Assembly: GCA_965222605.1 (NCBI GenBank)
Contig: OZ244960.1
Coordinates: 2,144,001 to 2,208,000 of the forward strand
From: Candidatus Latescibacterota bacterium
GTDB lineage: Bacteria > Latescibacterota > UBA2968
Length of the DNA stretch: 64,000 bases
Direction of reading: 5' to 3'
In this document: positions 1 to 17,969 of the stretch, one piece after another
Numbering within the stretch: position 1 is the stretch's first letter
How the letters are laid out: every line of letters begins with the position of its first letter
The notes under the pieces: generated by a model
What the model was told of the DNA's origin: nothing
The model's database searches: none
What the model saw: only the letters and a program-made list of their open reading frames with translations
Position numbers and translations under genes: made by a program

Positions 1-650
1 GCGGATTTGAATTCTCGGACACGCGGCACTATTGTTCTAAGCTTTGCCAAGTCAGAATCAGGAACATCTCCATCGAATATCTCCCCTTCGCCCACCAGGT
101 CAATCAACTTCTCCACATCCTCATTTCGGAAATGGCGCCAGTATATAAGAAAAAAATCAATCAGGAACCCTTGGAGTCCACGAGGTATACCAGCTTCGTG
201 AATAAACGAATCGACAAATTCTCGTCGATTGGTGCGGTTCAGTTTAATCCCTTCATTTTTGAATCCTTCTTCCCAGAGATCATATGTATAATTGTCCTGC
301 CGCCATCCTATTCTATTTCCATATATATCCCAGAAAGTTTGCACATAATGATCTTTGATAAGCTGACACACACCGGACAATGCAACTGTGAGAGCTTTTC
401 GTTTGACAAAAGATGTAAAAATTAGCCGTCGGCGATAGACTCGGGATTGGAGAGTTTTTTGGATAGACATCAAGTCATCAAGGTGGGCAGACATATCTAT
501 TTCTTCGAATGTAATCCTTTCGGGCATTTTTCGACCAGTTGCGTGAATTTCTTTTTTTACTATCTCCCGTTTCTTCTCAATTATCGCATGCAGTTCATTT
601 ACCTTATTCAAAAAGGTGTCAAAATTATTGATTATATTGATATTAGACAT
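1..650 (-). CDS. Partial hypothetical protein, last visible gene of the DISARM-like operon (runs off window start)
   Basis: Not in the ORF track. Manual translation from ATG at 650 (22 bp after the NERD-helicase stop) is open to base 1: MSNINIINNFDTFLNKVNELH...QTFWDIYGNRIGW...RREFVDSFIHEAGIPRGLQGFLIDFF... Confidence 0.75.
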   Translation of the reverse strand, partial: MSNINIINNFDTFLNKVNELHAIIEKKREIVKKEIHATGRKMPERITFEEIDMSAHLDDLMSIQKTLQSRVYRRRLIFTSFVKRKALTVALSGVCQLIKDHYVQTFWDIYGNRIGWRQDNYTYDLWEEGFKNEGIKLNRTNRREFVDSFIHEAGIPRGLQGFLIDFFLIYWRHFRNEDVEKLIDLVGEGEIFDGDVPDSDLAKLRTIVPRVREFKS

Positions 651-672
651 GACGCTGGACCTGTCTCTTAAA

Positions 673-2430
673 TCACATTTGACTCTGTAAAACAAAAAGC
701 ATAGCATATTCTCTTGCTAGCTGATTGAACTCCTCTTTACAAGCTTTGTGAATGCATACTCCAAGATAGGCATTGGCCCTGGAAAAACTCACGTAGTTGA
801 GCTTCCTGGCTTCAATGGAAACCAGCTCTTCAATATCTGTCACAATTATTACTTTGCTTTCCAGACCCTTAAACTTCCACACCGAAGTATAACGAATGGA
901 ATGAGATGGGTTAAGCCATTCCCGATCAACTTGAATAAGCCTATTGCCAGCAATGCGATCATGATCTGCCAGCACAGATTTCTCTGTATTTTTTGCAGTA
1001 AGAAGGATAATTTCATCAGGTTGGATACCATCCGAAAGAAGACGAGAGACCATATTCTCAACTTTCTTGAATTGGTGTTTGACGCCTCTGTAGTATATTT
1101 TTTCTACCAAGGGACCACTCGTATTCAGACACTCCTGTGGCTCTGTCCCTGATACAAGATCGGTAAAAGTAGCAATCGGCCTTGTATTTCGACAATTTTC
1201 TCTCAATCTAATGTTGCCAGTGCCATATTGTGTTAGATCAAACACTTCATCACCTGTTTCGACGTTAAAGATCGCCTGCTTATCATCCTCAAACCAGGCC
1301 CATCGTCCATCTTTCAATCCTCCCTGAACAAGCCAATCTACTAACTCCACATAGGGCTTGTAATATTTGAAATCCTGCCCTTCATCAATAATCATAACTT
1401 CAAAGGGAGAGTCATCATATAAATGACAGAACGCTTCGGGAAAATACTCTGGTAGCGTCTTCTGAAAAAAATGATGGGTTCCCAAATCTTCTTCAATATC
1501 AGAAACCAATCCGGCTTTTTTGATTATGTTAAGGCAAAATGCATGAAGAGTAGTAACCAGAATCTGATCCTGTAGATCTTCATCCTGTACACTTTTTTTT
1601 AGAGATGACGCCAGAAGAGCATTGAAACAGATAAAAATTACTCGTTCTCCCTTTCGCGCATGGTTCCGCGCTTTCTGCATTGCAAGGAGTGTTTTTCCTG
1701 TTCCTGCACCACCTCGCACAACCACCCGGTCATTTTCCAACGTATCAAGCACTTTGAACTGCCTATCGGTCAGTTTTATCATATTCTGATAGGATTGATT
1801 TACCTGGGTACTCAGGGTGGGCACCAAGTCAAAATCCCGTCTCAGATGATCGCGTAACTCACGAAGGCGAGTGTTTGAAAGTTTGACGGGAAGATGTCCA
1901 ACAACTCGTTCATGTTCTTTTATTCCATAACTATACATCTCCTCCACCAAGGAACTTATACTGTCTTGAAGACTGGCTCCATCATAGACCTTTTTCAGAT
2001 TCCATTCTGGGGATACCTCTTGAAAAAGAATATCCGTAAATAAGACACAATCGCTGAAAACAGTTCTGCCCTGATCAGAATCTTTGCCGAAGTGATCCCA
2101 TATATTCGCTCGCAAAGCATACATGGCTTCTCTCGCCTGTTGCATGGGAGACCTTCGTCGAGAATCCGTCTCATCATAACGATTGGTGAAATACCACACA
2201 CCCATCTCATGGCGGACCCGACCACCCTTCACTTCTAATACAAGGAGACCCCGTTGGGAAACAATGAGAAAATCAATTTCTGAGCTAAAATTTCTTCCAT
2301 GCTTGGCGAGACCAAGCGAATGCATCACAATATAGTTTCCGTCCAGTTCTTCCTTTAATCTATCAAAGAGATATCTTTCCGCATTACTTTTACAATCAGG
2401 ATGGACAAATTCTGGTATCATTACTGCCAT
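673..2430 (-). CDS. NERD-domain nuclease fused to SF1 (UvrD-like/DUF2075) helicase
   Basis: N-terminal NERD motifs (SEIDFLIV...LVLEVKGG...SPMQQA), Walker A GGAGTGKT, IIDEGQD, ENCRNT, KFKGLE, YVSFSRA. Confidence 0.9.
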   Translation of the reverse strand: MAVMIPEFVHPDCKSNAERYLFDRLKEELDGNYIVMHSLGLAKHGRNFSSEIDFLIVSQRGLLVLEVKGGRVRHEMGVWYFTNRYDETDSRRRSPMQQAREAMYALRANIWDHFGKDSDQGRTVFSDCVLFTDILFQEVSPEWNLKKVYDGASLQDSISSLVEEMYSYGIKEHERVVGHLPVKLSNTRLRELRDHLRRDFDLVPTLSTQVNQSYQNMIKLTDRQFKVLDTLENDRVVVRGGAGTGKTLLAMQKARNHARKGERVIFICFNALLASSLKKSVQDEDLQDQILVTTLHAFCLNIIKKAGLVSDIEEDLGTHHFFQKTLPEYFPEAFCHLYDDSPFEVMIIDEGQDFKYYKPYVELVDWLVQGGLKDGRWAWFEDDKQAIFNVETGDEVFDLTQYGTGNIRLRENCRNTRPIATFTDLVSGTEPQECLNTSGPLVEKIYYRGVKHQFKKVENMVSRLLSDGIQPDEIILLTAKNTEKSVLADHDRIAGNRLIQVDREWLNPSHSIRYTSVWKFKGLESKVIIVTDIEELVSIEARKLNYVSFSRANAYLGVCIHKACKEEFNQLAREYAMLFVLQSQM

Positions 2431-4166
2431 GATCTATCCTCTGAGAAATATCCCATTTTTGGGTGTTCGGGAGTACCTGTTACGAGCCCCCGATCCAGAA
2501 AACTATTCATGGTCTCACAGGCTGTCTCTGGAAGTAGCGCACAAGAATGACAAGCACCAAGATTAAGAGAGTCCATTCCCTGGCCCGTCGATTCAATACA
2601 AAGAGGATCGCTAGAACACCATCTGCCCTGTTCGAGTGCTTCCATCAATGTAGATTCAAATCGAGTTTGTTTACCCTGCTGTACCAATCCTCCTAAGCTA
2701 CCTTCAGAATCAGACGCAGCGGTAAAAATTAAGAGCCCCAGCATGGCCTTCTGACCATCATCGGGGTTGGCTGCATAGATACGCTCCTGGAGCGCTGAGG
2801 TGGAATATCCACAGTTAATAGTCAGAGTTCTGATAAGAAGATGAGAAAGACTATGGAGTAGAATAAATTCCGGCGTTACTATCTCATTATGGATCAATCT
2901 GTTTCTTGCAGCAAGTAGCTTTCTTTGGGATTCAATTATCTTTACACGATCCTGTAGCACCACGCTGTTCTGGCGAAACCAATTTTCTACTGCCTCCCGA
3001 CTTAATGCCAAGAAAATTCCTTCACCCAGCACTTCTGTAGCAGGTAGCCAGCCAATTGAGGACTTTTTTATACGTGCAGATAGTTCTCTATTAGGCTCTA
3101 TCCGATTGAAGCCTGTCAATGCCGTAACTACTCGAAGCTTTTTTACCAGAACGACGGTCTCTATCAGACTGCTGAAGTCAGGTGGCACAGGCTCTGGTTG
3201 TGCAACAAAATGGTCTTCTTCAGCAAAGTCAATCGGATCTTTTAGAACCCTGTATTCTGCTTCTTTGAGATCCACACTGTCTTCCCTCTCTTCCTCTCCT
3301 TTATGGTGAAGATAGGCTTGCCATAGATCATTGGACGAAAGATTTTCCTCTTTTGCAATTTGTTCAAGAAACGGCTTAACAATATCTTCTATTTGGACGC
3401 CAAGGTGGGCTCTTACCCACAACTCCTCGACTCTTCTGTAGGCACTGTTTGAATATGGAGGTATGGAAATGGCAGATACTGTATTGGAAAAATGTACGCT
3501 TGTTGCACTTCTCTGCAATACTACAACCGGTTGGTCACACGGTTGCTCATCTTTAAGCCAGGGGCGGGCACCGGAGCATGTAAATCCTCTAAAAGATTCC
3601 GGATTGAAGACATCTGCCATAGTTTTTTGTGCCTCGCACCGACCACAGGAAATTAGAATACTGGAAAGTGACGTAGACATTCCTTCATTCTTGATACTCA
3701 GTTTAGGTCTTTCACAGGGACAACCAATCCACCATTGCCAGGGAAAATCATCGATATGACCTCTGCGACAACACAGAACAAAACGAGTCGGAACCAACCG
3801 GGCACCATCTGGGTCTTCCTCTCTGCAACGTTCACAATGAGTCCCTTTAATACCTCCACCAAATGTGTCAAATGGAGCAAGACGCCTGCAAATCGGACAG
3901 AATACATATTGAGGAAACCGCACACACGGAATCCCATCATCTTTAGCAATTCTACCAAATACGTTTTCTGAAGGCCGAGGCTGTCTGAAACCGGATACAT
4001 CAAGAAATCGTCGCAGCCGACTCTCCGTAACTTCTTCAAGATTTGAAGGAGGCCAGAAATCAAGACCAGATACCATTACAGAATAATCAGCCAGATCAAC
4101 AATGGCACCAGTACTGAATGTAGTAATAAGCTGACTCCTTCTCAGTTCACCAATAATATCAGGCAT
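2421..4166 (-). CDS. drmB: DISARM DrmB-like DUF1998 protein
   Basis: N-terminal GELRRSQLITTFSTGAIVDL; HSLSHLLIR; C-terminal Zn motif CSSDPLC...ACHSCALLPETACE..N.FLDR; directly downstream of drmA. Confidence 0.9.
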   Translation of the reverse strand: MPDIIGELRRSQLITTFSTGAIVDLADYSVMVSGLDFWPPSNLEEVTESRLRRFLDVSGFRQPRPSENVFGRIAKDDGIPCVRFPQYVFCPICRRLAPFDTFGGGIKGTHCERCREEDPDGARLVPTRFVLCCRRGHIDDFPWQWWIGCPCERPKLSIKNEGMSTSLSSILISCGRCEAQKTMADVFNPESFRGFTCSGARPWLKDEQPCDQPVVVLQRSATSVHFSNTVSAISIPPYSNSAYRRVEELWVRAHLGVQIEDIVKPFLEQIAKEENLSSNDLWQAYLHHKGEEEREDSVDLKEAEYRVLKDPIDFAEEDHFVAQPEPVPPDFSSLIETVVLVKKLRVVTALTGFNRIEPNRELSARIKKSSIGWLPATEVLGEGIFLALSREAVENWFRQNSVVLQDRVKIIESQRKLLAARNRLIHNEIVTPEFILLHSLSHLLIRTLTINCGYSTSALQERIYAANPDDGQKAMLGLLIFTAASDSEGSLGGLVQQGKQTRFESTLMEALEQGRWCSSDPLCIESTGQGMDSLNLGACHSCALLPETACETMNSFLDRGLVTGTPEHPKMGYFSEDRSWQ

Positions 4167-4169
4167 ATT

Positions 4170-7100
4170 TCAATCCAGGTAGAGGTTAACTGTGGCATCC
4201 ACATTGCGCAGGTTGTTTAAGGTTCTAAATCCTCTATAATATCCGGTCTCCTCAAATCGGAGCAGTAGGGATTGGTGCTTTTCTTTTTCTAAGTAGTAAT
4301 AAACAGTCCCTTCTCTATTTTTTATTTCTTCCCAAGTATTAACAATGCTATCAAGCATCTGCTCTACAGCATTAACCTCAATATAGTCGATATTGTTAGC
4401 CCTACTAAGAATTTCTTTTTTAATATCGACGACTTTACTACGGTCAAATTTATTTGCATCACTATTTTCTTTCATATTATCCAGAAGGTGCCGTACAAGC
4501 GTTACAAGAATCGCGTGTAGTCCGCGTTTTCTGGCACCAATTGAAAATGGCGTTACGCTGGTTGCTTCGACTTCAGCATAAAGTCTGGAATGATAAAATT
4601 GAAAACGCTCGTAATGGGATCGGTCTCTTGATCTCATATGATTGTATAAGGTGACTACAAGGCCAGGATATTGTCTTCCAACCCGGCTGGTTGCTTGAAT
4701 GTATTCGGCGGTGGTTTTAGGCTGACCGATGACGGACATGAGCCCCAGTCTCGGTACGTCAAGACCAACAGATATCATATTTGTCGCAAGAACTACCTCC
4801 AGAGCATCACAGTCAGGATACTGGTACCAGAGACGTTCCCGAATTTCCTTAAGTTCCTGTTCATTTCGCCGACTGGTTAATTCAAACACTTCCTCGATCT
4901 CCCTCATGCTCTCGTTATCTCTTTCGGCACAAAAACGCAGGTAATCTTTTACGTCATCCATAACCTGGACCCGTGCACTGCCCAGTTCTCGAAGGCTATT
5001 GAAATATCCCATAAATGTCCAGTATGGATCTCTAATTTCATCATTAGCCTTCAGCTTTTTAGCGGAATGAAGCAAGGAAGCAGTAGATCGAATGAAGGTG
5101 GTGGTTCCGGTTTTCCCCGGTGTGAAAATTCCTACATACTTCCTTGCAGGTTTTTCTCGATCTTCACGGGCAAAAAATGAGTCTCTGGCATCAAGAAACG
5201 GAGGAGGAAACTGTGCAAATTGACGGTCAAAAAGGGCCTGTACCTGACTCGCTGCATTTTTTATAGTAGCAGTGGATGCAATAATCTTAGGACGATGAGA
5301 ATTTCTGGTTGATAGCAGATCTACGGCGGTTTCATAAAGACCAGCCAATGTGCCTAAGGGACCAGAAATCAAGTGTAACTCATCCTGGATAATCAGATCG
5401 GGTGGAGGTGTCTCGCCATCTGTTCCAAAAAAGTTACCTGCGTTCTCTACCCAAGGAAGGCGTGCAAACTTATCGATTGTTCCGATAATTAGAGATGGCC
5501 GAACTTCGTAAATATCTTCATCGACAAAATGAACCGGCAATCCGTCGTGAAAGCAGCAGGATTCGTCAGGACATCTTACTTGAGGGAGGTCGTTATCATA
5601 ATCTGCAGCAGAAATCTCTGTGCCACAATAAGGACATTTGGTCAATACCATCGGATTGGGCATTCCGGGTTCAGGTGAACCCTGTTGACACTGACGCATG
5701 AGCTGTCGATATCCCTTCTCGTAGTTATTATTAATGTTGATTTTGTTCGGAGTTCCTCCCCCTCCAACCCACAATCCAATCGATATAGGAGCAGTCTTCT
5801 GAACGTCCAGTTCTTCTCTACGGACTTTTTCACAGGCACAGATCATAGCTGCCGAGCGTTCAAACTGATCCGCTGTCAGCAACCGCAAAGTATATCTGGT
5901 TATCACTGATGTACCGCCGCCATCATGGTGTTTCTCTTTTCCCCTGAGCCGGCGCAAAAAAAGTGCAAAGGCGGTAAGTCCAAGATACGCTTCAGTTTTG
6001 CCGCCTCCGGTAGGAAACCAAAGAAGATCTGCGATCGATCTATCATCCGACGAATTGTTTCCGACCGACTCAAGGCAAAGTAAAATAAAAGCAATCTGGA
6101 AGGGATACCATTCATGGCCTGAGTTATAGTCAGGCTTGCCACTATATTGTCTTTTTTTCCAATCCGACAATGCGAAGACGATCAGCATAGCTTTGTGTGC
6201 AAGCTGAAATGCTCGGAGGATTAGAGGATCACCGAGAACATTAATCCCTTTCTTCATTCTTTGTAGAGCCTGTAAACAGGACTTCTGCTGTTCTTGAGCA
6301 ACGGCGATAAAATCATCGTTTATCTTTTTATTTTTACTGACAGAGATGTTCTCGATTTCTTTTGAATTTTCTTTAATCCAATTCTCATAGATGTTGGTAA
6401 TATTGCCAAAGAGGTCTTTAAGATCATCTGGACTGGCATTGGCAATTTCGCTTAGAAAGAATGGGGGAAGATTTAGATCCTTCGGAGGAGTCAGAGGATA
6501 TATATCATATTCAGGGATAAAGCAGCATTCAATTCGTAAACATCTATTTTTCACTGGATCATCCCATTTTGCTGAACACCCATGTCCGGTTGCAAAATTT
6601 TTCTGGTGGCGATAAAGTAGATAAAAGGCTTTATTTTCGTCTCCTCCTTCTTGGCGTCCATCAAATGGCCTCTCGGTGAATATCCGCTGACCATCTTTCC
6701 CTGAAACTGAGAAATGAACCTGATAGAAACTGTTTTCGGCAATGTCCTTAAAAGGGACGAAACTGCTTCGGGACCGTCGAGAGTTATCATCTTCATCTCT
6801 CAAAGGTTTCACTACATTCCTGTTAATTAAGGATATAGTAATAGAAACCTGGCCTTCCTGTGACGGCTCTCTATATTTTATGTAGGCATCCAAACCGTCA
6901 CATACTTTCACACTCTTTTTAGTATTTTTACGAATAATAGGAAGTTCAAGTTTTGATGCTCCTGTACTTTCCACCCAGTCTGGTGTGATACTTTTTCGTT
7001 TCCACTGTAGATCGACATCCTTATCCTCAGACGGAGTAAGTTCGTAACGTCCTGCATCCACTTCCAGCATGATAGACCTGGTGTCCTCTGAGCAAGTAAA

Positions 7101-7382
7101 GGTGATCCCATAGCAGGATGGTCTGCGGACATTACTCTGAGCAAGTTTTCCTTCACTTTCTCCCGATTCACCGAACTCGTTTTCTATATCCTCGTCATCT
7201 TCTATTGAAGTTAGTACTTCAGGAGGAAAAAGAATCCCTGTAGAGTATCGATGCATGGGTGTGTCATCTTCATCTCTGTAGGCAATAGTCTCGTTCATTC
7301 CATTGTAAGGTCCAAAAAAATCTCTTTTCAGGAGTTCCAGCATGCCCCCCCTAAAATCTTCATGAGTTTTGATATCTTCCAT
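4170..7382 (-). CDS. drmA: DISARM DrmA-like SF2 helicase
   Basis: WYPFQIAF, LLWFPTGGGKTEAYLG, RYTLRLLT, PPDLIIQDELHLISGPLGT, ATNMISVGLDVPRL, QPKTTAEYIQATSRVGR; start taken at ATG 7382 (MEDIK), 2 bp after the upstream stop. Confidence 0.92.
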   Translation of the reverse strand: MEDIKTHEDFRGGMLELLKRDFFGPYNGMNETIAYRDEDDTPMHRYSTGILFPPEVLTSIEDDEDIENEFGESGESEGKLAQSNVRRPSCYGITFTCSEDTRSIMLEVDAGRYELTPSEDKDVDLQWKRKSITPDWVESTGASKLELPIIRKNTKKSVKVCDGLDAYIKYREPSQEGQVSITISLINRNVVKPLRDEDDNSRRSRSSFVPFKDIAENSFYQVHFSVSGKDGQRIFTERPFDGRQEGGDENKAFYLLYRHQKNFATGHGCSAKWDDPVKNRCLRIECCFIPEYDIYPLTPPKDLNLPPFFLSEIANASPDDLKDLFGNITNIYENWIKENSKEIENISVSKNKKINDDFIAVAQEQQKSCLQALQRMKKGINVLGDPLILRAFQLAHKAMLIVFALSDWKKRQYSGKPDYNSGHEWYPFQIAFILLCLESVGNNSSDDRSIADLLWFPTGGGKTEAYLGLTAFALFLRRLRGKEKHHDGGGTSVITRYTLRLLTADQFERSAAMICACEKVRREELDVQKTAPISIGLWVGGGGTPNKININNNYEKGYRQLMRQCQQGSPEPGMPNPMVLTKCPYCGTEISAADYDNDLPQVRCPDESCCFHDGLPVHFVDEDIYEVRPSLIIGTIDKFARLPWVENAGNFFGTDGETPPPDLIIQDELHLISGPLGTLAGLYETAVDLLSTRNSHRPKIIASTATIKNAASQVQALFDRQFAQFPPPFLDARDSFFAREDREKPARKYVGIFTPGKTGTTTFIRSTASLLHSAKKLKANDEIRDPYWTFMGYFNSLRELGSARVQVMDDVKDYLRFCAERDNESMREIEEVFELTSRRNEQELKEIRERLWYQYPDCDALEVVLATNMISVGLDVPRLGLMSVIGQPKTTAEYIQATSRVGRQYPGLVVTLYNHMRSRDRSHYERFQFYHSRLYAEVEATSVTPFSIGARKRGLHAILVTLVRHLLDNMKENSDANKFDRSKVVDIKKEILSRANNIDYIEVNAVEQMLDSIVNTWEEIKNREGTVYYYLEKEKHQSLLLRFEETGYYRGFRTLNNLRNVDATVNLYLD

Positions 7383-7384
7383 TG

Positions 7385-9286
7385 CTAAATCTCCTTCCAG
7401 TCCTTGCAAAATCCTAAGCCCATAATTCTGACTCCTGACCACAAACAGGATGTCAGAAATTTTCGAGGTACTACTTCCTTCATACCGGCATCTCCAATCT
7501 CAGTAACAATATCTCTAATCCAGAGCCCTGTGATCTGGTGGGGTACTTTCTTAACCACATTTCCAAATCTTGTTTCGGAGATTGACTGTCTAAGTGCATA
7601 GCCAAAATATCGATCAGTTGTACCAATGGATCTCTGTTGATCAATTTCACCTACACAGATGTCATATATGGGAATCCGATTTTCACTGATCAAAAATCTC
7701 AGGGTTACGGAATCTCCGTAATTGAAATTTCGTATTCTTTCTTGGTTTTCATAGATTTTTTTGACAGAGCCATATTTTTTTTCAGAAACAAAGGAGTGAA
7801 TATCAATATCTCTTTCCAGCCCGACTTCAAGGCTTTTTAGAGGTTGCCAAGGTCCGTATCTTCCATATACGAACGGTGTTTCAACCCATCGATTCACTTT
7901 GTTACGACGCAATCCATCCCGTCGTCCTGCATCCAACCTGTAAAGTTTATTCCTTGCGCGTGTCAAACCTACAAATAAAACTCGCGTTTCATCCTCAGCA
8001 TTTTCATCAACAAGAGGTTCGTCAGAGTCAATTGCCTCCTCAATACCCTGATCATCTCCGACCACAACTGCCACTTGATCAAATTCCCTCCCTTTGGATC
8101 GATGGATGGTTGAAAGGATGAGGTCATGATCTGTCGATACCTCTGTCTCAGGAAAAACAGCATCTGTTCTCAATGCCTGGCGTAAAAGATTGAGATCAAG
8201 TAATATACTATTTTTTCTTTGTCGTACGATTCGCAGAAGCGCGTCCCACATTTCTTGCGAATCCATACTTCCATCTCCCAAGCGTTCCTCAAAAAGTGGG
8301 ATGAAATCACGCTTACGAATTTCCGAAGACGACCAGCCCAAGAATAACCAGCCCACCCAATAAGGCACAGTTTTTTCATCTCTCCTTTTCTGGATTCTAA
8401 AAGACCTATCCATACTTTTCAGACAGGAAGCCAGCCGATAGACTTGGCCGTTGTCTCTACAGAGAAAGCAGGATCTATTATTTCTAAAATTATTCGGAAC
8501 TGAGGGATTGGATAGCTCTCCAAGAGATTCGAGAAACTGATATTCTTCGAATAGGTAGGCGGCTGCCATCGGTTTATTGTTCAAGATCAGTTTTCGCCCT
8601 TTTTCAGATATTTCTTCAAGCACCGGATTGTCTCTAATGCGATAATTCCTCTGGAATTCTATGTTAGTATCCAGTTCAGGGAAAAACTTCCTTACCTGAT
8701 TAAGGAATTCTGTAGATGTCATTGCATCTGGCTGTTTACTGATCTGAAAATCATAGATACCCTGTGCTGAATCACCCAGAAGAGTAAAGCCACAATCTAC
8801 CTGCCGGAGTATCTGTAGGGTCATCTCTGCTCGTGAGCCTACCAAGTCCTGAATTTCATCCACCAGTACGTGGCGATACCTCTGGAGCTCTTCCATTGCT
8901 TTTTCATTAGACACTATGAGTTCGGTAGCTTTTTCGATTCTGGATTCGTAATCCCAATCCCCTGCGAGGGATTCCCGGCCAGTGACATCAATTATGAATC
9001 GACTGGCAAAAGAGTCGAAAGTCCGTATTTGTGTTCGAAGCAAGTCTTCTGTAATAGATTCCTTTTCAACTGCATCCTTAAGTCGAGATTTAACTTCAGC
9101 TACTGCAGCAACAGAAAAACTCAGCACCAAAATTTCAGAACCTGGCTCTAACTCTTCTTCCTTAGCCAAAAATTCAAGACGTTTCAATAGACAGTGTGTC
9201 TTACCTGTACCGGGACCTGCTTGAACAAGGAGTTGTGCCGATGCCCTTGCAAATACCACCTTTTTTTGTTCACCGGTGAGATCCAT
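7385..9286 (-). CDS. UvrD/REP-family SF1 helicase with unknown C-terminal extension
   Basis: QAGPGTGKT, LVDEIQD, LGDSAQGIY, NYR, STIHRSKGREFD, ETRVLFVGLTRAR. Confidence 0.9.
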   Translation of the reverse strand: MDLTGEQKKVVFARASAQLLVQAGPGTGKTHCLLKRLEFLAKEEELEPGSEILVLSFSVAAVAEVKSRLKDAVEKESITEDLLRTQIRTFDSFASRFIIDVTGRESLAGDWDYESRIEKATELIVSNEKAMEELQRYRHVLVDEIQDLVGSRAEMTLQILRQVDCGFTLLGDSAQGIYDFQISKQPDAMTSTEFLNQVRKFFPELDTNIEFQRNYRIRDNPVLEEISEKGRKLILNNKPMAAAYLFEEYQFLESLGELSNPSVPNNFRNNRSCFLCRDNGQVYRLASCLKSMDRSFRIQKRRDEKTVPYWVGWLFLGWSSSEIRKRDFIPLFEERLGDGSMDSQEMWDALLRIVRQRKNSILLDLNLLRQALRTDAVFPETEVSTDHDLILSTIHRSKGREFDQVAVVVGDDQGIEEAIDSDEPLVDENAEDETRVLFVGLTRARNKLYRLDAGRRDGLRRNKVNRWVETPFVYGRYGPWQPLKSLEVGLERDIDIHSFVSEKKYGSVKKIYENQERIRNFNYGDSVTLRFLISENRIPIYDICVGEIDQQRSIGTTDRYFGYALRQSISETRFGNVVKKVPHQITGLWIRDIVTEIGDAGMKEVVPRKFLTSCLWSGVRIMGLGFCKDWKEI

Positions 9287-9356
9287 GATCTATCCTGACT
9301 TCAGGTTGTGTTTGTAATATTCACAGTTTGAAATGAATTTATCAGACAAGTTCATC

Positions 9357-10955
9357 TCACGGACTCACTCTTGCTTGCTCCAGTACCTGGTGGACAATAG
9401 CTGCAATCTGTCTGGCCAAAAGAGGCGGCACTGCATTACCAACCTGAATGTATTGTGATGTACGTGGACCGCAAAAAAAATAATTATCCGGGAAGGTCTG
9501 AAGCCTCGCAGCCTCCCGGACAGTGAGACTACGGCACTGTGTCGGGTCGGGATGGATATAGTAATGCCCGTCTTTCGATATATGTGAAGTAACTGTAGTC
9601 GCGGGCCTGTTGCCAATCTGTACTCGAAATCGATCACTAAAAAGAGGTTTTCCGTTTGCAGCGCGTTTTGCATTCTTATGGGCAGGCAAAAGATCGGTGG
9701 GAAAATCTTCTAATTTTGGAGATTGACCCTCAACCTCTGCGAAGCAAGCAGCATAGAAATAGCGATATAGATCACTCACCATATGTCCTCGAGTGGTGTG
9801 GTTGCACACTCCTCCTATACGGGAATCGAGAAACCAATTGGGTTCATGGCTGATATCCGTATCACAAGAGATGAACTCACCACCGCGACCAGCACTATGT
9901 CGAATTTCTTTCAGTTTAGCAATCAGTTTTTCATGAATTTTTCCATTCTCTTCTGTTTGCAGCGCAGCAAACCAAGGACACTCAGCCATTTTATACAGCC
10001 AATTACGCCAGGCATCAGCACTATCTTTTTCTCGGGATAATCCGCTTCTTACTTTGGGTAAATCGTCCAAAACTCTCCTCGCATTAACAACAGGACTCTG
10101 TTTTTTGAGAGTTTTTGGCGGGATCTCAATATCTTTATGGATTCCGAGGATAATGACGCGATGGCGTGCCTGCGGAATGCCGAATTTTTCCATATGAACC
10201 ACAAAATCAGAGAGGTTTGCATTACTGATTTCATCAGGTTTTACCAATGAATATAATTTGTATCGACACGGCTTGCGGGCCTGTACAGGTGCCCGAACAG
10301 AACGGTCCTCACGTTCGAGGGCTTTCTCTGGTTCCTGAAGGTCCTCATACATACGTTCAAAGATGTACTGATCCTTTAAGGTAGCAGACAATAATCCTTT
10401 GACGTTTTCCATCACAAAGATGGCTGGTTGGTGTTCCGCAATAATTTGTAAGTATTCTAAATATAAATATTGCCGGTGATCTTTCTCTGCCTGATAGTCG
10501 GAGTTCCCACGATTACGAGACCTGCCGACAACAGAGTATGCCTGACAGGGAGGACCACCGACCAACACCCACTCGCCACAATCCTCTAAAGCATCCTGAA
10601 TCCATTTATGAATTGTATGAGGATCATCTTTTCCTAACTCGGCAAGACGTGCTTCTTGTTTAACTTGTTTGTATTCTTCGGGGTACCGACTGAACAGCTT
10701 ATTTCGCCGCTCATCTTCCGGAATATCAACTTGGCGCAGATAGTCATAGTAGGCATCCGGGACCTTGTCATGGGGAAACTGGCGAAAGAAGCTACGCAAT
10801 TCAAGTGTCTGGTGAGCCGCAGGATCTTTTTCTATAGAGAGTTTGATTTGAAAAGGCTGCTCACCAGAATCTGCATAAGCAGAAAACCCCTCGCCCAGTC
10901 CGCCCGGCCCAGCGAACAGGTCTATAACAGGGATCTCTCTCGGATATTCTGACAA
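9357..10955 (-). CDS. dcm: DNA (cytosine-5)-methyltransferase (Dcm family; DrmMII-like by context)
   Basis: DLFAGPGG, GGPPCQAYS, MENVKG, PQARHR, TVREAARLQTFPD, QVGNAVPP. Confidence 0.93.
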   Translation of the reverse strand: MSEYPREIPVIDLFAGPGGLGEGFSAYADSGEQPFQIKLSIEKDPAAHQTLELRSFFRQFPHDKVPDAYYDYLRQVDIPEDERRNKLFSRYPEEYKQVKQEARLAELGKDDPHTIHKWIQDALEDCGEWVLVGGPPCQAYSVVGRSRNRGNSDYQAEKDHRQYLYLEYLQIIAEHQPAIFVMENVKGLLSATLKDQYIFERMYEDLQEPEKALEREDRSVRAPVQARKPCRYKLYSLVKPDEISNANLSDFVVHMEKFGIPQARHRVIILGIHKDIEIPPKTLKKQSPVVNARRVLDDLPKVRSGLSREKDSADAWRNWLYKMAECPWFAALQTEENGKIHEKLIAKLKEIRHSAGRGGEFISCDTDISHEPNWFLDSRIGGVCNHTTRGHMVSDLYRYFYAACFAEVEGQSPKLEDFPTDLLPAHKNAKRAANGKPLFSDRFRVQIGNRPATTVTSHISKDGHYYIHPDPTQCRSLTVREAARLQTFPDNYFFCGPRTSQYIQVGNAVPPLLARQIAAIVHQVLEQARVSP

Positions 10956-11049
10956 GGTTCTTCTCGCTTATCTGAGAATGATTGAATGGGATTAGACACA
11001 GAGCGAAGTGATTATCAAATATGCATCTGATAATATTTAATGAGCTTTC

Positions 11050-11078
11050 ATTTTATAGCTAATCTAAAAAGGCGTCAA
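11050..11078 (-). promoter_or_regulatory. Putative sigma70 promoter of the defence operon
   Basis: Minus strand TTGACG-17 nt-TAAAAT, about 95 bp upstream of the methyltransferase start. Confidence 0.55.
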
Positions 11079-11197
11079 CACCAATCTGTATCTAATGCTG
11101 ACTATTGCTATTACCATCGAATTTATCTTTAAATCTTTGGAATCCCATCATGGAAGCCTCGGAGTAAATTATCTTCGGAGTTTTTTGTGTAATAATA

Positions 11198-11225
11198 TTG
11201 ACAAAAAATTATAAATAGATATACT
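11198..11225 (+). promoter_or_regulatory. Putative sigma70 promoter of abiEi (likely leaderless), overlapped by an inverted repeat
   Basis: TTGACA-16 nt-TATACT ending 7 nt before the ATG; no SD; IR ttttttgt...acaaaaaa spans the -35. Confidence 0.55.
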
Positions 11226-11232
11226 TTAACAC

Positions 11233-11838
11233 ATGTCTAAAAATTCACCTGAAAATCAAGTTCTGGAACTGGCACAGCAAGGTCTCTTGAGAGTTTGCGA
11301 TCTGACATCCCGGGGCCTTCACCCCGAATATCTGCGCCGGCTGTATCAGAAGGGACTGGTGCGACGAGAGGGAAGAGGCCTGTACATTGCAGCCGACGCC
11401 GAGATTTCGGTACACTATGGGCTGGCGCAAGTAGCAAAGCGCGTTTCCCACGGGGTGATTTGTCTGCTCTCAGCTTTGAGCTTTCACGAAATCGGCACAC
11501 AGCTACCGCATCAGGTCTGGATGGCCATTGACCGCAGAGCAGCCAAACCAAAGATGCAATTTCCTCCTCTGAGGGTGATGCGGTTCTCCGGTGCTGCACT
11601 GACTGAAGGGATCAAGACATATCAGATTGAGGGCGTTCCCGTTCAGATTTTTAACCCCGCCAAAACAGTTGCAGACTGCTTCAAATACCGCAACAAAATC
11701 GGCCTGGATGTCGCTCTTGAAGCGTTGAAAGAATGCATTCGCGACCGTCGCACCACAATGGACGACCTCTGGCACTTCGCACAAGTCTGCCGAATGACCA
11801 ATGTGATGCGGCCCTATATGGAAGCTATCGTAGCATGA
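11233..11838 (+). CDS. abiEi: Type IV TA antitoxin AbiEi family
   Basis: N-terminal wHTH (LRRLYQKGLVRREGRGLY), GVICLLSALSFH, PAKTVADCFKYRNKIGLDVALEAL. Confidence 0.88.
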   Translation: MSKNSPENQVLELAQQGLLRVCDLTSRGLHPEYLRRLYQKGLVRREGRGLYIAADAEISVHYGLAQVAKRVSHGVICLLSALSFHEIGTQLPHQVWMAIDRRAAKPKMQFPPLRVMRFSGAALTEGIKTYQIEGVPVQIFNPAKTVADCFKYRNKIGLDVALEALKECIRDRRTTMDDLWHFAQVCRMTNVMRPYMEAIVA

Positions 11839-11950
11839 AAAGAGCGCGTCCCAAAAACCTGCCCGTATCCGTCCATCAACGACTTCTAAACCTGAGCAAG
11901 GAAAAGGGCGAAGAACCCAACCAGGTTTTCTTGCGCTATGTTAAGGAGAG
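11835..11950 (+). pseudogene. Truncated AbiEii nucleotidyltransferase toxin (N-terminus only)
   Basis: ATGA overlap with abiEi; MKRARPKNLPVSVHQRLLNLSKEKGEEPNQVFLRYVKER resembles AbiEii N-termini, then similarity stops and the frame runs antisense into the next gene. Confidence 0.7.
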
Positions 11951-12002
11951 AAATACAATCAAGTATGGCAAGACGGTGGTCCTTGGGAAAAATAACCTCA
12001 GA

Positions 12003-12713
12003 TTAATCTCCTTCAGAAAGTATTTCGGCAATTTTATCCAGATATGCTTTCAGAGACAATCCGTGACTTCTTGCCAGAATCCCCAGCGTATCCACCTTTG
12101 TCCGTTCTCCCTTTTCGATCCTGCGCACATGGCGTTCCGAAAGGCCCTGAATATCGGCTTGCTTAAGCCCGCACTGTTTTCGAAATGCGGCAACAACCTC
12201 TCCGAACCGAATGTCAGACATCAATCTTTCCCGATCCTTTTTCTCCCGCCACATATCATCTTTCAGGTAGCGAACAGCATCCAGATCGATATGTACATCA
12301 GCCTCAGGCCAATGGATATAACTGCCTTCGCTTGAGAGAGTAAATGAAGAACGCTGTTCTTCTGGAATACGCTTGAGTGCGGGCATTTCTTCAAAGCCAA
12401 CTCTGAACAGGGTATGGTCACAGGCCACGACAAAAAGCTCATCATCAATAACCTGTGCAGTGGCAATTAGCTGATCTGGACACCCAAGACTCCAGGCCGT
12501 GAGCACGCGCTTTGGCACATCCTTATCCGAAAATATTGCGGGTCATTCTCAGTTTTGCCTCATAAAGTGGTAAAACCTGAGCACCTTAGTCTTCTCGGAC
12601 AAAAAGGGTTCGAAGATAGTTTCGGTGATTGGCAGCACGCACAAATTCAGTGACAACAGGCAGATCGGGAACAGAAGTGAGCACAAAAATATCCCGAGAA
12701 TTTACCCTTCGCA
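12003..12713 (-). pseudogene. Degraded DUF2442-like + XRE HTH protein (open 3' part 12003-12518)
   Basis: GSYIHWPEADVHIDL and C-terminal HTH (LKQADIQGLSERHVRRIEKG); upstream 12519-12713 reads as coding-like but has an in-frame TAA and a frameshift, and abuts the IS end. Confidence 0.6.
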
Positions 12714-14111
12714 GTGATTACTCCCAACGCTAAAGCAGTTGGGCTTCTTGGCGGTCAAGCCGCCTGACTTTGTAATCCCAAAGTCAGAATGTTTATCGCA
12801 GCATTGTGGTCTCTGTCTGTGGTATAGCCACACTTTTTGCAACAATGCACACGCTGAGAGAGTGATTTCTTCTCACGGTATCCGCAAGCAGAGCACACCT
12901 GAGACGTGTATGCAGGGTTTACGGCTTTAAATCCAATACCAGCTTCTTCCGCTTTGTATTCGAGACAATGCCGAAACAGGGACCATGCTGCATCACTAAT
13001 TGATTTCGCCAATCGCCTGTTCTTTTGCATACTCTGTGGTTCAAGTTTTTCGACTGCTACGAACCCATGACGATTGACTACTTTTCTTGCTTGTTGATGG
13101 GCAAAGTTGTGTCGTCTGTTTCTGATGCGCTCGTGAACTCTCGCAACAACTTTGCGCGCCTTCTCACGTTTCTTTGGCAACGCTTTCTTAACCTTGTCCC
13201 ACTTGCGTTGCGCTCTCTTGAGTGCCTTTTCTTCCTGCCTGAGAAACCGTGGGTTAGGCACACGCTCACCAGCACTGGTAACAGCAAATGCGTTCAGCCC
13301 CACATCAATCCCAACAGCGGTGTCAGGATGATCGGGAGACCGCACAGGGTCGCCAATATCACAACTGATAGACGCATACCACTTGCCTGTTGCTGTCCGC
13401 GTGATGGTGCAGGTCTTAGGGACACCTTCAAGACAACGATGCTGAACAATGCGTATGCAACCGATTTTGCCCAACCGCAAGCCCTTGTCGTCCAATCGGC
13501 ATCCGTTGGAGAATTGCGGATAGGTGAGCGAATCGTAGCGGTTCATGCCCTTATAGCGTGGAAAACCCGCTTTCTCGCCTGTCTTTGCCCTCTCTTTGAG
13601 ACGGCGAAAGAAGCCATCAAATGCCCTATCAACACGCACAGCCACTTGTTGCAAGACCTGACTATATACTTGCTTAAGCGCAGGACGTTGTTGTTTCATC
13701 AAGGGGAGTATTTTAATCTGATCGTAGCAAGACAAAGATTTTTGCTCGCTCTCCCACGCCTGAACACGGGCACATACTAACTGGTTGTAGAGCAGTCGGC
13801 ATTCTTCAATATGCCCTTGCAGTATCGCAGCTTGCTTCTTGGTTAGACGCAAGCGATATTTGAAATTTTTGACCATTGCAATCACCAAAGAGAAAGCCCG
13901 TCAGGGTGTCACCTCAAAAGCACAGCGCTTGTGGTGAAGTGACAGTTACAAGATACATTTTTTGGGGCGCGAAGGGCAAGTGGAATGAGCGGATGAATCT
14001 TGTTGATGCACCGCCCACATTGCCTTGTGCGATGTGCCCCAACGCTAAAGCACCACCCCATAAGCATGTCCCTGCGAAAGCAGGGAGCCGATGGGTTTTA
14101 CGGGCTATCTG
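12714..14111 (-). mobile_element. tnpB-only IS200/IS605-family element, copy A
   Basis: Minus strand: left junction TTAT|cagatagcccgtAAAAcccatcgg...; right end GAAGcccaactgctttagcgttgggagtaaTCAC; no TSD; no tnpA ORF. Confidence 0.82.
12755..13876 (-). CDS. tnpB: RNA-guided endonuclease TnpB
   Basis: FKYRL N-terminus, RuvC-I GIDVG, RuvC-II VAVEKL, Zn ribbon CSACG..CKKCG, RuvC-III DRDHNAAIN; catalytic D-E-D intact. Confidence 0.93.
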   Translation of the reverse strand: MVKNFKYRLRLTKKQAAILQGHIEECRLLYNQLVCARVQAWESEQKSLSCYDQIKILPLMKQQRPALKQVYSQVLQQVAVRVDRAFDGFFRRLKERAKTGEKAGFPRYKGMNRYDSLTYPQFSNGCRLDDKGLRLGKIGCIRIVQHRCLEGVPKTCTITRTATGKWYASISCDIGDPVRSPDHPDTAVGIDVGLNAFAVTSAGERVPNPRFLRQEEKALKRAQRKWDKVKKALPKKREKARKVVARVHERIRNRRHNFAHQQARKVVNRHGFVAVEKLEPQSMQKNRRLAKSISDAAWSLFRHCLEYKAEEAGIGFKAVNPAYTSQVCSACGYREKKSLSQRVHCCKKCGYTTDRDHNAAINILTLGLQSQAA

Positions 14112-14160
14112 ATAAAAATCTAACTTTTTAAGTATAATATCAAGCCTGTAGTTGTAGAAA

Positions 14161-14200
14161 TTCGTCTTGCAGCCATTGGTTCACAAAACTATATTCATTT
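14161..14200 (+). repeat. ~40-bp imperfect direct repeat, copy 1 (copy 2 at 14575-14614)
   Basis: ttcgtcttgcagccattggttcacaaaactatattcattt vs ttcgtcttgcagctattggttcacaaagctacatttattc. Confidence 0.85.
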
Positions 14201-14253
14201 TGAGTGCGCGTGACATGGATGATAAGGAAAGAAGACAACATGCACGACGATAA
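14191..14253 (+). pseudogene. C-terminal remnant of BrnT-type toxin
   Basis: IFILSARDMDDKERRQHARR* carries the BrnT C-terminal xSARxMxxKER pattern and overlaps the antitoxin start. Confidence 0.65.
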
Positions 14254-14518
14254 AGAAATTCCAAAATTCGACAGCTACGAAGAAATGGCAGCGTTTTGGG
14301 ATACACATAGTCTTGCCGACTATTGGGAACAGACGGAGCCTGTTGATTTCGATTTCGCGCCAGAAGCACGGCGGCAATACCTAATAGGGGTTGACCGTGA
14401 GGTATTAGCGCGTGTGCAACGTCTTGCTCGAACACGGGGTGTAAGTATTGAGAGCCTGGTTAATTTGCTCCTTGAACAACGACTCCTGGAGATTGAGAAT
14501 CCACCCTCAAATGTGTAA
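14240..14518 (+). CDS. BrnA/CopG-type antitoxin
   Basis: IPKFDSYEEMAAFWDTHSLADY and RHH-like C-terminus (ARTRGVSIESLVNLLL). Confidence 0.8.
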   Translation: MHDDKEIPKFDSYEEMAAFWDTHSLADYWEQTEPVDFDFAPEARRQYLIGVDREVLARVQRLARTRGVSIESLVNLLLEQRLLEIENPPSNV

Positions 14519-14542
14519 CATGTACTAAACACCATCCACCTT

Positions 14543-14576
14543 AAAAAGCCACTCCGAATTTCAGGAGTGGTTTTTT
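14543..14576 (+). terminator. Rho-independent terminator (possibly bidirectional)
   Basis: aaaaagccactcc-gaatttca-ggagtggtttttt. Confidence 0.75.
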
Positions 14577-14614
14577 CGTCTTGCAGCTATTGGTTCACAA
14601 AGCTACATTTATTC
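14575..14614 (+). repeat. ~40-bp imperfect direct repeat, copy 2
   Basis: Matches 14161-14200. Confidence 0.85.
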
Positions 14615-14683
14615 GGATTTCTCAACCGTTCTATACGTTCGCTTGTTGTTCGGCTTGAATTGAAGATGACAGGAGCATCAAAT

Positions 14684-15496
14684 ATGGCAGATAATATACC
14701 AATCGAACACCGGTTCCATTTTGACCTGAGCGGCTTTCTGGTCCTGCGCAATGTATTGACACCCGAAGAATGTGAAACCACTCTAAATGTCCTGTCTGAT
14801 TTGGAAAGTCAGACATATAAAGATGAATGGATGGCTTCTGCACCCACTTTTGGGAGACCAAAACCACTACCAACTTGTGATAAGAGTCGAGAATTTCAGA
14901 TCCGTTTGAATGGTCTTTTACGGCTTGATCCCGTTTTTGACCAGATGATCGCACATCCGAAAGTCGCGCCTTATCTGAAGGCATTTATGGGCGAACCTCA
15001 ACTCATCAACACCTGGTCGATTTCTAAATTCAAGGGTGCGCAACAGGGAGGGTGGCATCGCGGCGTGCCAACAACGGATTATAGTTATCGAAACGGCGAT
15101 ATTCGCTCTCGGATGCTCAATACCGTGTATTTTTTAACAGATAATGGACCCGATGACGGGTGTGTGGTGGCTGTACCGGGTTCACATAAGAGCAATTTTG
15201 ATTTGAGCTGGCAGGAGTATCGGGGATTGGATCTTCCAGGTGCCGTCGCAGTAACGGGCAAGGCAGGTGATGTCTTACTCTTTTCCGAGACCGTCATCCA
15301 CAATGGACTGCCCAAGACCACAGAGCCAGTGCGATCCAATCTGTATTTCAACTACACACACGCACATTATAATGTGATGATGCGTGAGCCGCCAAATGGA
15401 TACCACAGATGTCTTCCGCCAGAGATCCGCGAGCGATTTAATGAAGCGCAAAAAGCGATGACGCGGTGGATGGAATTGGCAAGATGGGATGTGTAG
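14684..15496 (+). CDS. PhyH-family Fe(II)/2-oxoglutarate oxygenase (HxG variant)
   Basis: FDLSGFLVLRNVLT, WHRG, FLTD..PDDG..VAVPGSHK, KAGDVLLFSETVIHNG, RSNL; AGGAG RBS before ATG 14684. Confidence 0.85.
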   Translation: MADNIPIEHRFHFDLSGFLVLRNVLTPEECETTLNVLSDLESQTYKDEWMASAPTFGRPKPLPTCDKSREFQIRLNGLLRLDPVFDQMIAHPKVAPYLKAFMGEPQLINTWSISKFKGAQQGGWHRGVPTTDYSYRNGDIRSRMLNTVYFLTDNGPDDGCVVAVPGSHKSNFDLSWQEYRGLDLPGAVAVTGKAGDVLLFSETVIHNGLPKTTEPVRSNLYFNYTHAHYNVMMREPPNGYHRCLPPEIRERFNEAQKAMTRWMELARWDV

Positions 15497-15552
15497 CACT
15501 GCGTTGGATTCCGTTTTCAAGCCTCCTCATACGGACCTCCCCTGAATACATC

Positions 15553-16767: not shown

Positions 16768-16832
16768 TGCAATCCTCCCTTCCGCTATTCAATCGGAGCA
16801 ACACGCTCCAGCCACTCTCAAATTCGGCCTCA

Positions 16833-17861: not shown

Positions 17862-17969
17862 ATAAAACCTCCAGTAAAGTGCGATCGTCTCAGCCAGACC
17901 TGCCACAGAAAATTCGAATTCACTTCCCGATACGCGAAAAGACCGCGCAAAAAGCCCAGAGCCACCGGA

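Follow-up and report, generated by a model that had tools for sequence, protein, structure and literature searches.

A DISARM-like operon of Candidatus Latescibacterota in which a UvrD-type helicase and a NERD nuclease-helicase accompany DrmA and DrmB

Introduction

The DISARM class 2 system from Bacillus paralicheniformis was reportedly described by Ofir et al. in 2018. In class 2 (drmE-drmA-drmB-drmC-drmMII), self DNA is labeled by a C5 methylase, and the system needs DrmE but can do without DrmC (as restated in 10.1101/2021.12.28.474362). Class 1 (drmD-drmMI-drmA-drmB-drmC) is represented by Serratia sp. SCBI, for which a structural report (PMC9142583) describes DrmA and DrmB as an ATP-dependent complex that loads on single-stranded 5′ overhangs and is restrained by a trigger loop and by methylation. 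The same report presents DrmC as dispensable, as not co-purifying with DrmAB and as often missing, and its authors suggest the recruitment of other nucleases. The way in which DISARM destroys or blocks foreign DNA is unsettled. Here, we analyze a 64-kb window of a Candidatus Latescibacterota genome (GCA_965222605.1, contig OZ244960.1, positions 2,144,001 to 2,208,000; the window is the whole stretch of DNA that was analyzed, and all coordinates are based on it), at one end of which drmA and drmB lie in an operon with genes for a C5 cytosine DNA methyltransferase, a UvrD/PcrA-type superfamily 1 (SF1) helicase, a NERD nuclease fused to an SF1 helicase (NERD-helicase) and a sixth protein. We read this locus, at a probability of roughly 0.6, as a single anti-phage operon of DISARM type that was acquired horizontally and in which the UvrD-like helicase and the NERD-helicase replace the usual partners of DrmAB.

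The UvrD-DrmA-DrmB-NERD layout is recurrent and common in genomes and constitutes an unnamed DISARM variant. A whole DrmAB branch carries a different dedicated nuclease-helicase that is coupled to drmB and predicted from modeling to touch DrmB, and a canonical SF1 helicase sits where the uncharacterized DrmE usually stands.

Composition of the operon

The six genes run in one direction and are tightly coupled, as the first-pass annotation of this DNA had stated from gaps of 70 bp or less. The methyltransferase and UvrD-like genes are 70 nt apart, followed by spacings of 2 nt between the UvrD-like gene and drmA and 3 nt between drmA and drmB, a 10-nt overlap of the drmB stop with the NERD-helicase start, and a 22-nt gap before the sixth gene. 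The identities assigned in that annotation (methyltransferase, UvrD, drmA, drmB, NERD-SF1 helicase and an unknown open reading frame [ORF]) agree with Pfam, PADLOC and NCBIfam. The methyltransferase matches Pfam PF00145 (DNA_methylase, 1.9e-45), PADLOC DrmMII (2.1e-96) and NCBIfam dcm (2.9e-37), and contains motifs I (FAGPGG, residues 14-19), IV (PCQ, 135-137), VI (ENV, 183-185), VIII (QxRxR, 262-266) and X (GN, 506-507). DrmA matches PADLOC DrmA at 1.2e-224 as well as Pfam Helicase_C (pfam00271), the DISARM criterion for drmA, and its GGGKT (479-483) and DELH (687-690) motifs do not vary across an alignment of 24 sequences, the window DrmA and 23 relatives (residue numbers count from GTG 7442, the start of the longest ORF). 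DrmB scores 491.6 bits on NCBIfam DrmB_fam against a cut-off of 240, matches PADLOC DrmB (4.5e-75) and Pfam MZB (1e-06), and retains the conserved Cys clusters.

Both SF1 helicases are likewise well defined. The UvrD-like protein matches Pfam UvrD-helicase (8e-26), contains a Walker A motif (GPGTGKT, 24-30) and DEIQD (143-147), and has GajB as its top PADLOC name (1.1e-27). The NERD-helicase combines Pfam NERD (3.3e-13) and UvrD-helicase domains and matches PADLOC RTasNERD-Hel over its full length (5.1e-51), with further matches to C3a187 (1.4e-26) and Nhi (7.2e-07). Of 25 family members, 23-24 retain the nuclease residues E51, D53, E66 and K68, the exceptions being two truncated ORFs, and all 25 have the Walker A (G240-K246) and DExQD (349-353) motifs. 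Judged from these residues, the catalytic motifs of the operon's enzymes are intact.

PADLOC composes DISARM type I of DrmA, DrmB, DrmC, DrmD and DrmMI, and type II of DrmA, DrmB, DrmC and DrmE plus DrmMII (PMC9252829). The operon contains DrmA, DrmB and DrmMII from these lists, and we found none of DrmC, DrmD, DrmE and DrmMI. No phospholipase D (PLD; pfam13091) or DrmC match occurs in the six proteins, and tblastn of the whole window found none; the six proteins have no match to Pfam DrmE_C or NCBIfam DrmE_fam, and a tblastn search of the window with four DrmE representatives gave no match; and neither the SNF2 domain of DrmD nor the N6-adenine methyltransferase domain of DrmMI is present in the six proteins or the scanned neighbors. 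With none of the four components found in the 64-kb window, the layout is that of neither class, as the first-pass annotation had proposed, and the operon would be DISARM-like in its working but a member of neither.

With class 2, the operon shares separate and adjacent drmA and drmB genes, a DrmMII-type C5 methyltransferase, a gene for a large protein directly upstream of drmA, and a gene for a nuclease-bearing protein directly downstream of drmB. It differs in that the upstream protein is a true UvrD/PcrA-type SF1 helicase and not DrmE-like, and in that a NERD PD-(D/E)xK nuclease-SF1 helicase takes the place of the ~250-aa PLD protein; in addition, the window has no Vsr and the operon has an extra sixth gene. 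The class 1 system of Serratia (PMC9142583) has the DrmAB core in common with the window, which lacks the SNF2 DrmD, the N6-adenine DrmMI and the PLD DrmC. It is from this system that we take the expectation that DrmAB loads on ssDNA ends and that defence depends on ATPase activity.

Recurrence of the layout among DrmA loci

Scanning species genomes with the window DrmA gave at least 598 stretches that encode a relative, and the best 80 (34-44% identity) were examined, each together with flanks of up to 10 kb that are shorter where a contig ends. Representatives of the neighbor families were mapped back on all 80 loci by tblastn and then counted. DrmB is next after DrmA in 78 loci, the remaining two being cut by contig ends. 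A UvrD-like gene lies immediately upstream of drmA in 55 loci, and DrmE, identified by Pfam DrmE_C and NCBIfam DrmE_fam, lies upstream in 18; seven loci have neither, and the two never occur together (0/80). Whenever DrmE is present, it lies upstream of drmA, the position at which the window has UvrD. On a DrmA tree of 79 loci and the window (L045, with a short DrmA piece, was omitted), the UvrD label needs only 3 changes compared with a shuffled mean of 22.2, and none of 500 shuffles was as low.

The NERD-helicase abuts drmAB in 25 of the 80 loci, 18 times after drmB and seven times between drmE and drmA, and this adjacency spans at least six phyla. The complete UvrD-DrmA-DrmB-NERD core is found in 14 loci from Pseudomonadota, Acidobacteriota, Bacillota, Actinomycetota and Melainabacteria, 11 of which also encode a C5 methyltransferase, generally accompanied by Vsr. 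These counts bear out the co-conservation of the UvrD and NERD genes with drmAB on which the first-pass annotation had made its proposal depend. On its suggested test of whether the whole order from methyltransferase to unknown gene recurs, the core does recur, the exact window order with an adjacent methyltransferase is seen in Acidovorax (L064) and Paracoccus limosus (L068), and no locus (0/80) contains a member of the sixth-gene family.

The operon runs past the end of the window, as the first-pass annotation had cautioned, with the sixth ORF leaving at the left edge, such that ~2.6 kb of the sixth gene and anything beyond it are unseen. An ordinary class 2 system with drmE and drmC just past that edge would therefore be conceivable, but we consider it very improbable. 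Neither gene is matched within the 64 kb, neither occurs within the flanks (up to 10 kb, shorter at contig ends) of any of the 14 loci with UvrD, DrmAB and NERD, and the mutual exclusion of UvrD and DrmE at one position upstream of drmA argues against a drmE elsewhere in the operon. PLD DrmC is itself rare in this sample, occurring in one locus (L079; PADLOC DrmC, 2.7e-138). A jackhmmer search from that protein against six-frame ORFs of the 80 loci and window positions 1-20000 matched only itself, and among loci that lack a NERD-helicase, 22 ORFs lying downstream of drmB contained no PLD domain.

The seven loci with a NERD-helicase between drmE and drmA (L044, L050, L054, L056, L076, L077 and L078) are all of the DrmE type, and the NERD-helicase is thus common to the DrmE and UvrD branches, at two positions. 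A different arrangement is seen in L053 (15595-20105), a DrmE-type locus without a NERD-helicase, in which drmB is followed by a 359-aa protein with weak NucS_C/HSDR_N (PD-[D/E]xK) matches and then by a 1098-aa ResIII helicase; this pair may be a further nuclease-plus-helicase substitute.

The helicase at the DrmE position

The shared position of UvrD and DrmE raises the question of whether the UvrD-like protein is a divergent DrmE. This was ruled out by a family-versus-family hhalign comparison, which gave a probability of 0.35%. Over its first ~460 positions, the profile of the UvrD-like family aligns with the structures of PcrA, UvrD and Rep at ~1e-42, and because it does so without profile similarity to DrmE, the helicase is, on profile evidence, a non-homologous occupant of the DrmE position. 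The remainder of the protein (residues ~452-633; window 7388-7933, minus strand) forms a conserved, family-specific domain of ~180 residues. It was modeled with a predicted local distance difference test score (pLDDT) of 88.6 and a predicted template-modeling score of 0.86, and a fold search of the model against 350,542 PDB chains returned no match at E <= 0.001.

Two groups of loci carry an additional gene next to the UvrD-like gene. In 36 loci (L001-L038, L045, L065), from Actinomycetota, the ~4.7 kb directly upstream of it encode a ~1590-aa protein that begins with a sacsin-like (GHKL-type) ATPase and ends in an SF2 ResIII helicase, and that is TmtA-like in PADLOC. A C5 methyltransferase is present in only 9 of the 33 loci that have this protein and no NERD-helicase, and these loci may represent another DISARM-like class in which methylation is perhaps unused. 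In five loci (L033, L040, L042, L046 and L067; four Bacillota and one Melainabacteria), an Hsp70-like ATPase gene (Pfam HSP70, ~1e-34 to 1e-38; TPR repeats in one of two scanned) lies directly upstream of UvrD-DrmA-DrmB, and the UvrD-like proteins have an extra ~190 aa at the N-terminus.

The NERD-helicase and its association with DrmB

A complex of DrmB residues 170-581 with the whole NERD-helicase was modeled with a score of 0.63, compared with 0.00 for the best of three controls, and passed the test; solved complexes attain the mark for passing in 116 of 157 cases and mismatched pairs in 2 of 215, rates that are only approximate here given that the alignments were self-made. The runs agree in at least 78% of contacts, with a partner pLDDT of at least 79. 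In the model, DrmB 249-274 contacts NERD-helicase residues 416-444 and the C-terminal tail 568-581. The model supports binding of the NERD-helicase by DrmB, and to our knowledge no complex of this kind has been solved. Two mutable targets, the NERD active site and the predicted DrmB-tail interface, give access to the effector step and to what the DrmE position does.

Recurrence extends to plasmids. A search with the NERD-helicase matched 28 plasmid records, of which seven were inspected. Four of the seven abut a gene pair annotated as "helicase-related" and "DUF1998", and two of these four, on Azospirillum and Rhizobium plasmids, have the order UvrD-DrmA-DrmB-NERD. A common architecture is thus missed by the PADLOC types I and II and by NCBI naming; its core appears in the plasmid records only as a "helicase-related protein" (or "DNA helicase") next to a "DUF1998 domain-containing protein".

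The main rival to a single operon is a defence island of independent neighbors, in which the C5 methyltransferase would be an orphan or part of another restriction-modification system, UvrD-DrmAB a module of its own, the NERD-helicase a self-sufficient protein like Nhi, which is a stand-alone nuclease-SF1 helicase defence protein, and the large sixth gene unrelated. Such independence is consistent with the three inspected plasmid matches in which the NERD-helicase is away from DrmAB, with its variable position before drmA or after drmB, with a methyltransferase whose position and strand differ among loci, and with the sixth gene that is missing from all 80. It does not readily account for the overlap of the drmB stop and NERD-helicase start, for direct adjacency to drmAB in 25 of 80 loci and four of seven plasmid matches, for a DrmB-NERD-helicase model that passes where its controls score 0.00, or for the methyltransferase in 11 of the 14 UvrD-plus-NERD loci. 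We therefore regard independent neighbors as unlikely.

Several observations nevertheless weigh against a single DISARM-type operon. Defence genes cluster in islands, such that adjacency alone can mislead. The NERD-helicase is not obligatory, since 41 of the 55 UvrD-type loci have none adjacent. It may also act on its own, as suggested by its match to a PADLOC model for DRT-associated proteins and by the three DrmAB-free plasmid contexts, one with no helicase neighbor (H3), one beside a 2094-aa DEAD/DEAH helicase (H2) and one beside a DUF3883 protein (H7). The two plasmid cassettes with the full core have no annotated methyltransferase within 8 kb, in PLSDB gene tables that are incomplete. DrmB segment 249-274, which forms the modeled interface, is variable in all classes and shows no pattern with NERD presence. 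The window DrmA scores 929.4 bits on NCBIfam DISARM_DrmAS, 21 bits below the equivalog cut-off of 950, and sits on a long, unplaced branch of the DrmA tree (support 23), and its closest relatives (46-91% identity) come from metagenomes.

Proposed mechanism

If the operon works as one DISARM-type system, the C5 methyltransferase would mark host DNA, by analogy with class 2, and DrmA and DrmB would form an ATP-driven DNA-loading core like that of the solved Serratia complex. DrmAB would engage incoming or replicating foreign DNA, and the UvrD-type SF1 motor may do whatever DrmE does in class 2. The NERD-helicase, in place of the PLD DrmC, is predicted by the complex model to dock on DrmB and could then unwind and cut the DNA engaged by DrmAB. 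Gene content, active sites and co-occurrence are observed, and the DrmB-NERD contact is modeled; the conjectural parts of the scheme are self/non-self discrimination through methylation, the sequence of these events and the action of the nuclease. We infer, as did the first-pass annotation, that DrmAB may sense unmethylated DNA with NERD as the effector; what helps this proposal is the intact active sites and the passing DrmB-NERD model.

A bolder proposal is that UvrD-DrmA-DrmB-NERD is a self-contained defence class of its own, in which the NERD-helicase, docked on DrmB, would be the DNA-degrading effector long sought for DrmAB-type immunity, UvrD would be a non-homologous functional substitute for DrmE, methylation would be optional, as could be surmised from the plasmid cassettes that show none nearby, and a ~1082-aa protein with immunoglobulin-like (Ig-like) repeats would have been recruited in the lineage of the window as a possible sensor of phage proteins in the manner of DruH. 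We consider this possible but doubtful.

There is only a slim chance that the operon is instead a DNA-repair module of the MrfA/YprA kind. DrmA and DrmB do belong to the YprA/MrfA helicase superfamily, and UvrD-type helicases and PD-(D/E)xK nucleases serve repair in other settings. DrmA and DrmB nonetheless match DISARM models and not repair families, and the related loci carry Vsr, restriction enzymes and transposases, with some located on plasmids. The operon block is also low in G+C (41-46%, compared with ~50-60% deeper into the window), which fits an acquired island, and is flanked by AbiEi and TnpB genes.

Relation to other defence systems

The first-pass annotation had considered the operon a candidate for an undescribed system. 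Full-text searches of the literature found no description of DrmAB with UvrD-like and NERD helicases and no named system of this composition, and to that extent the claim stands. The layout is not rare, however, and belongs to the "uncharacterized DISARM-like classes" to which Bell et al. 2025 refer without describing them; the supplementary tables of that study contain thousands of "DISARM-like helicase" rows, with no NERD or UvrD among the rows listed.

Several named systems share parts of the composition. ARMADA type II (ArmA-D; Bell et al. 2025) resembles the operon in combining a YprA-family helicase, a GajB/UvrD-like SF1 helicase and a methyltransferase, but its YprA helicase comes as one polypeptide that ends in a Vsr nuclease, and it has a PglX-like methyltransferase, a BrxHII/SNF2 helicase and a RelE-like domain on the UvrD-like ArmD; no such feature was seen in the window operon. 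TALON, from the same study, has a fused YprA helicase that resembles the one of ARMADA and bears an inactive RNase H domain, along with a TPR-CSD protein, a TBP and a NERD nuclease, whereas the helicase here is a split DISARM-type DrmA/DrmB, and no TPR, CSD or TBP domains were found in the operon or the scanned neighbors. Druantia III (DruH and DruE; PMC13192584) pairs a YprA-family helicase with a protein of ~1100 aa in which a helical N-terminus is combined with Ig-like domains, similar in size and domain order to the sixth-gene family; DruE is a fused helicase-nuclease, unlike the split DrmA/DrmB of the window.

Gabija places GajA, an OLD-family ATPase-nuclease, next to its UvrD-like helicase GajB; here, the other five proteins gave no PADLOC match to GajA, and the neighbors of the UvrD-like gene are the methyltransferase and DrmA genes. 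The stand-alone NERD/nuclease-SF1 helicases (Nhi, RTasNERD-Hel and C3a187) have the same arrangement of an N-terminal nuclease and a C-terminal UvrD-like helicase as the window protein, the gene for which differs in being translationally coupled to drmB and in having no reverse transcriptase; no domain of the latter, which is the criterion for DRT with RTasNERD-Hel, was found in the operon or the scanned neighbors.

The sixth gene

The sixth gene is a lineage-specific addition outside the conserved set. Its 59 matches are mostly 980-1110 aa in length, the best being 89% identical and 1082 aa long. For the ORF in the window, Pfam gave nothing above threshold (its one weaker match has E 0.0047) and PADLOC and NCBIfam gave no match, and the family (7-8 members) likewise has only sub-threshold Pfam matches and none in the other two; searches also gave no PDB sequence match and no plasmid tblastn match. 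In an AlphaFold2 model of the 1082-aa relative, with a pLDDT of 84.6, residues 1-290 form a helical N-terminal domain, followed by a long run of tandem Ig-like beta domains and a helical C-terminus. Foldseek searches of PDB and BFVD with this model yielded only generic tandem-Ig proteins, at a template-modeling score of ~0.1, with no DruH structure among the PDB matches listed. The possibility that the sixth gene encodes DrmE was ruled out by a lack of blastp or NCBIfam similarity. One sixth-gene relative and one DrmA relative (P0181 and P0003) have identical contig statistics ("2 contigs, longest 18570"), which suggests that they share one contig and hints that the sixth gene-DrmA pairing recurs in the lineage of the window.

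A weak lead connects the family to DruH. A 2026 preprint (PMC13192584) assigns DruH, which partners the YprA-like helicase DruE in Druantia III, to the YjiT family and proposes that it is a phage sensor bearing Ig-like domains. A language-model search with the sixth gene gave "YjiT" as a lead (feature score 0.88), and hhalign of the family against K-12 YjiT gave a probability of 27% (E 6.7e-4). Against a 22-member DruH profile, hhalign gave a probability of 0.9% (E 0.061) in the same N-terminal region as the YjiT match, and the PADLOC DruH model matched none of eight family members, whereas it scores 3.7e-241 on K-12 YjiT. A DruH/YjiT link is thus not established.

In the E. coli K-12 genome itself (L081, NC_000913.3, 7415-11856), yjiT encodes 505 aa that match the first half of PADLOC DruH and is followed by the yjiV pseudogene, adjoining mcrBC. 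This arrangement resembles what a decayed Druantia III would leave behind, and it has probably been noted before.

Operon layout and genomic setting

The six genes are on the minus strand and read from position 10955 down to 1 (Table 1). We prefer ATG 7382 over GTG 7442 as the likely start of DrmA because it lies 2 nt past the UvrD stop and gives a protein that fits the coverage of relatives, and the sixth gene likely starts at ATG 650, since all relatives align from residue 20 of the query. The candidate operon promoter matches the consensus at 10 of 12 positions; it is a weak candidate because the whole scan gave 18 sites against a shuffle mean of 21.1, i.e., no excess over shuffles.

Table 1. 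Features of the operon and adjoining genes, in window coordinates
Feature	Position	Strand	Remarks
Sixth gene, N-terminal ~216 codons	3-650 (ORF 3-707)	-	exits window; likely start ATG 650
NERD (PD-(D/E)xK) nuclease fused to SF1 helicase	673-2430	-	585 aa; DrmC position; proposed effector
DrmB, DUF1998/MZB zinc-binding DrmA partner	2421-4166	-	581 aa
DrmA, SF2 (YprA-like) helicase of DISARM core	4170-7382 (longest ORF 4170-7442)	-	1070 aa (longest ORF 1090 aa)
UvrD/PcrA-type SF1 helicase	7385-9286	-	633 aa; DrmE position
C5 cytosine DNA methyltransferase (DrmMII-like)	9357-10955	-	532 aa; TTG start
Promoter-like site TTGACG-17-TAAAAT, candidate operon promoter	11050-11078	-	~95 nt upstream of methyltransferase start
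Strong promoter-like site	11198-11225		belongs to AbiEi-type gene
AbiEi-type antitoxin/regulator gene	11233-11838	+	divergent from operon; Pfam AbiEi_4 6e-10
ORF next after AbiEi-type gene	11733-12335	+	no family match
DUF2442-HTH ORF	12003-12518	-	overlaps preceding ORF
TnpB / IS605 OrfB gene	12755-13888	-	Cas12f1-like TNB, OrfB_IS605 and HTH_OrfB domains

By megablast, E. coli genomes and plasmids contained no match to window positions 1-11200, and a tRNA scan of the window found none and so provides no clue to an integration site. PhyH genes near drmB in both the window and L052 were considered as a shared feature and dismissed as a coincidence, the two being only 30% identical over 111 aa. 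Beyond the divergent AbiEi-type gene, gene calls conflict around 11733-12518 because the plus-strand ORF overlaps the DUF2442-HTH ORF. Between roughly 12 and 16 kb, G+C climbs from ~45% to 55-60%, which suggests an island boundary, and the TnpB gene lies at this edge of the low-G+C block.

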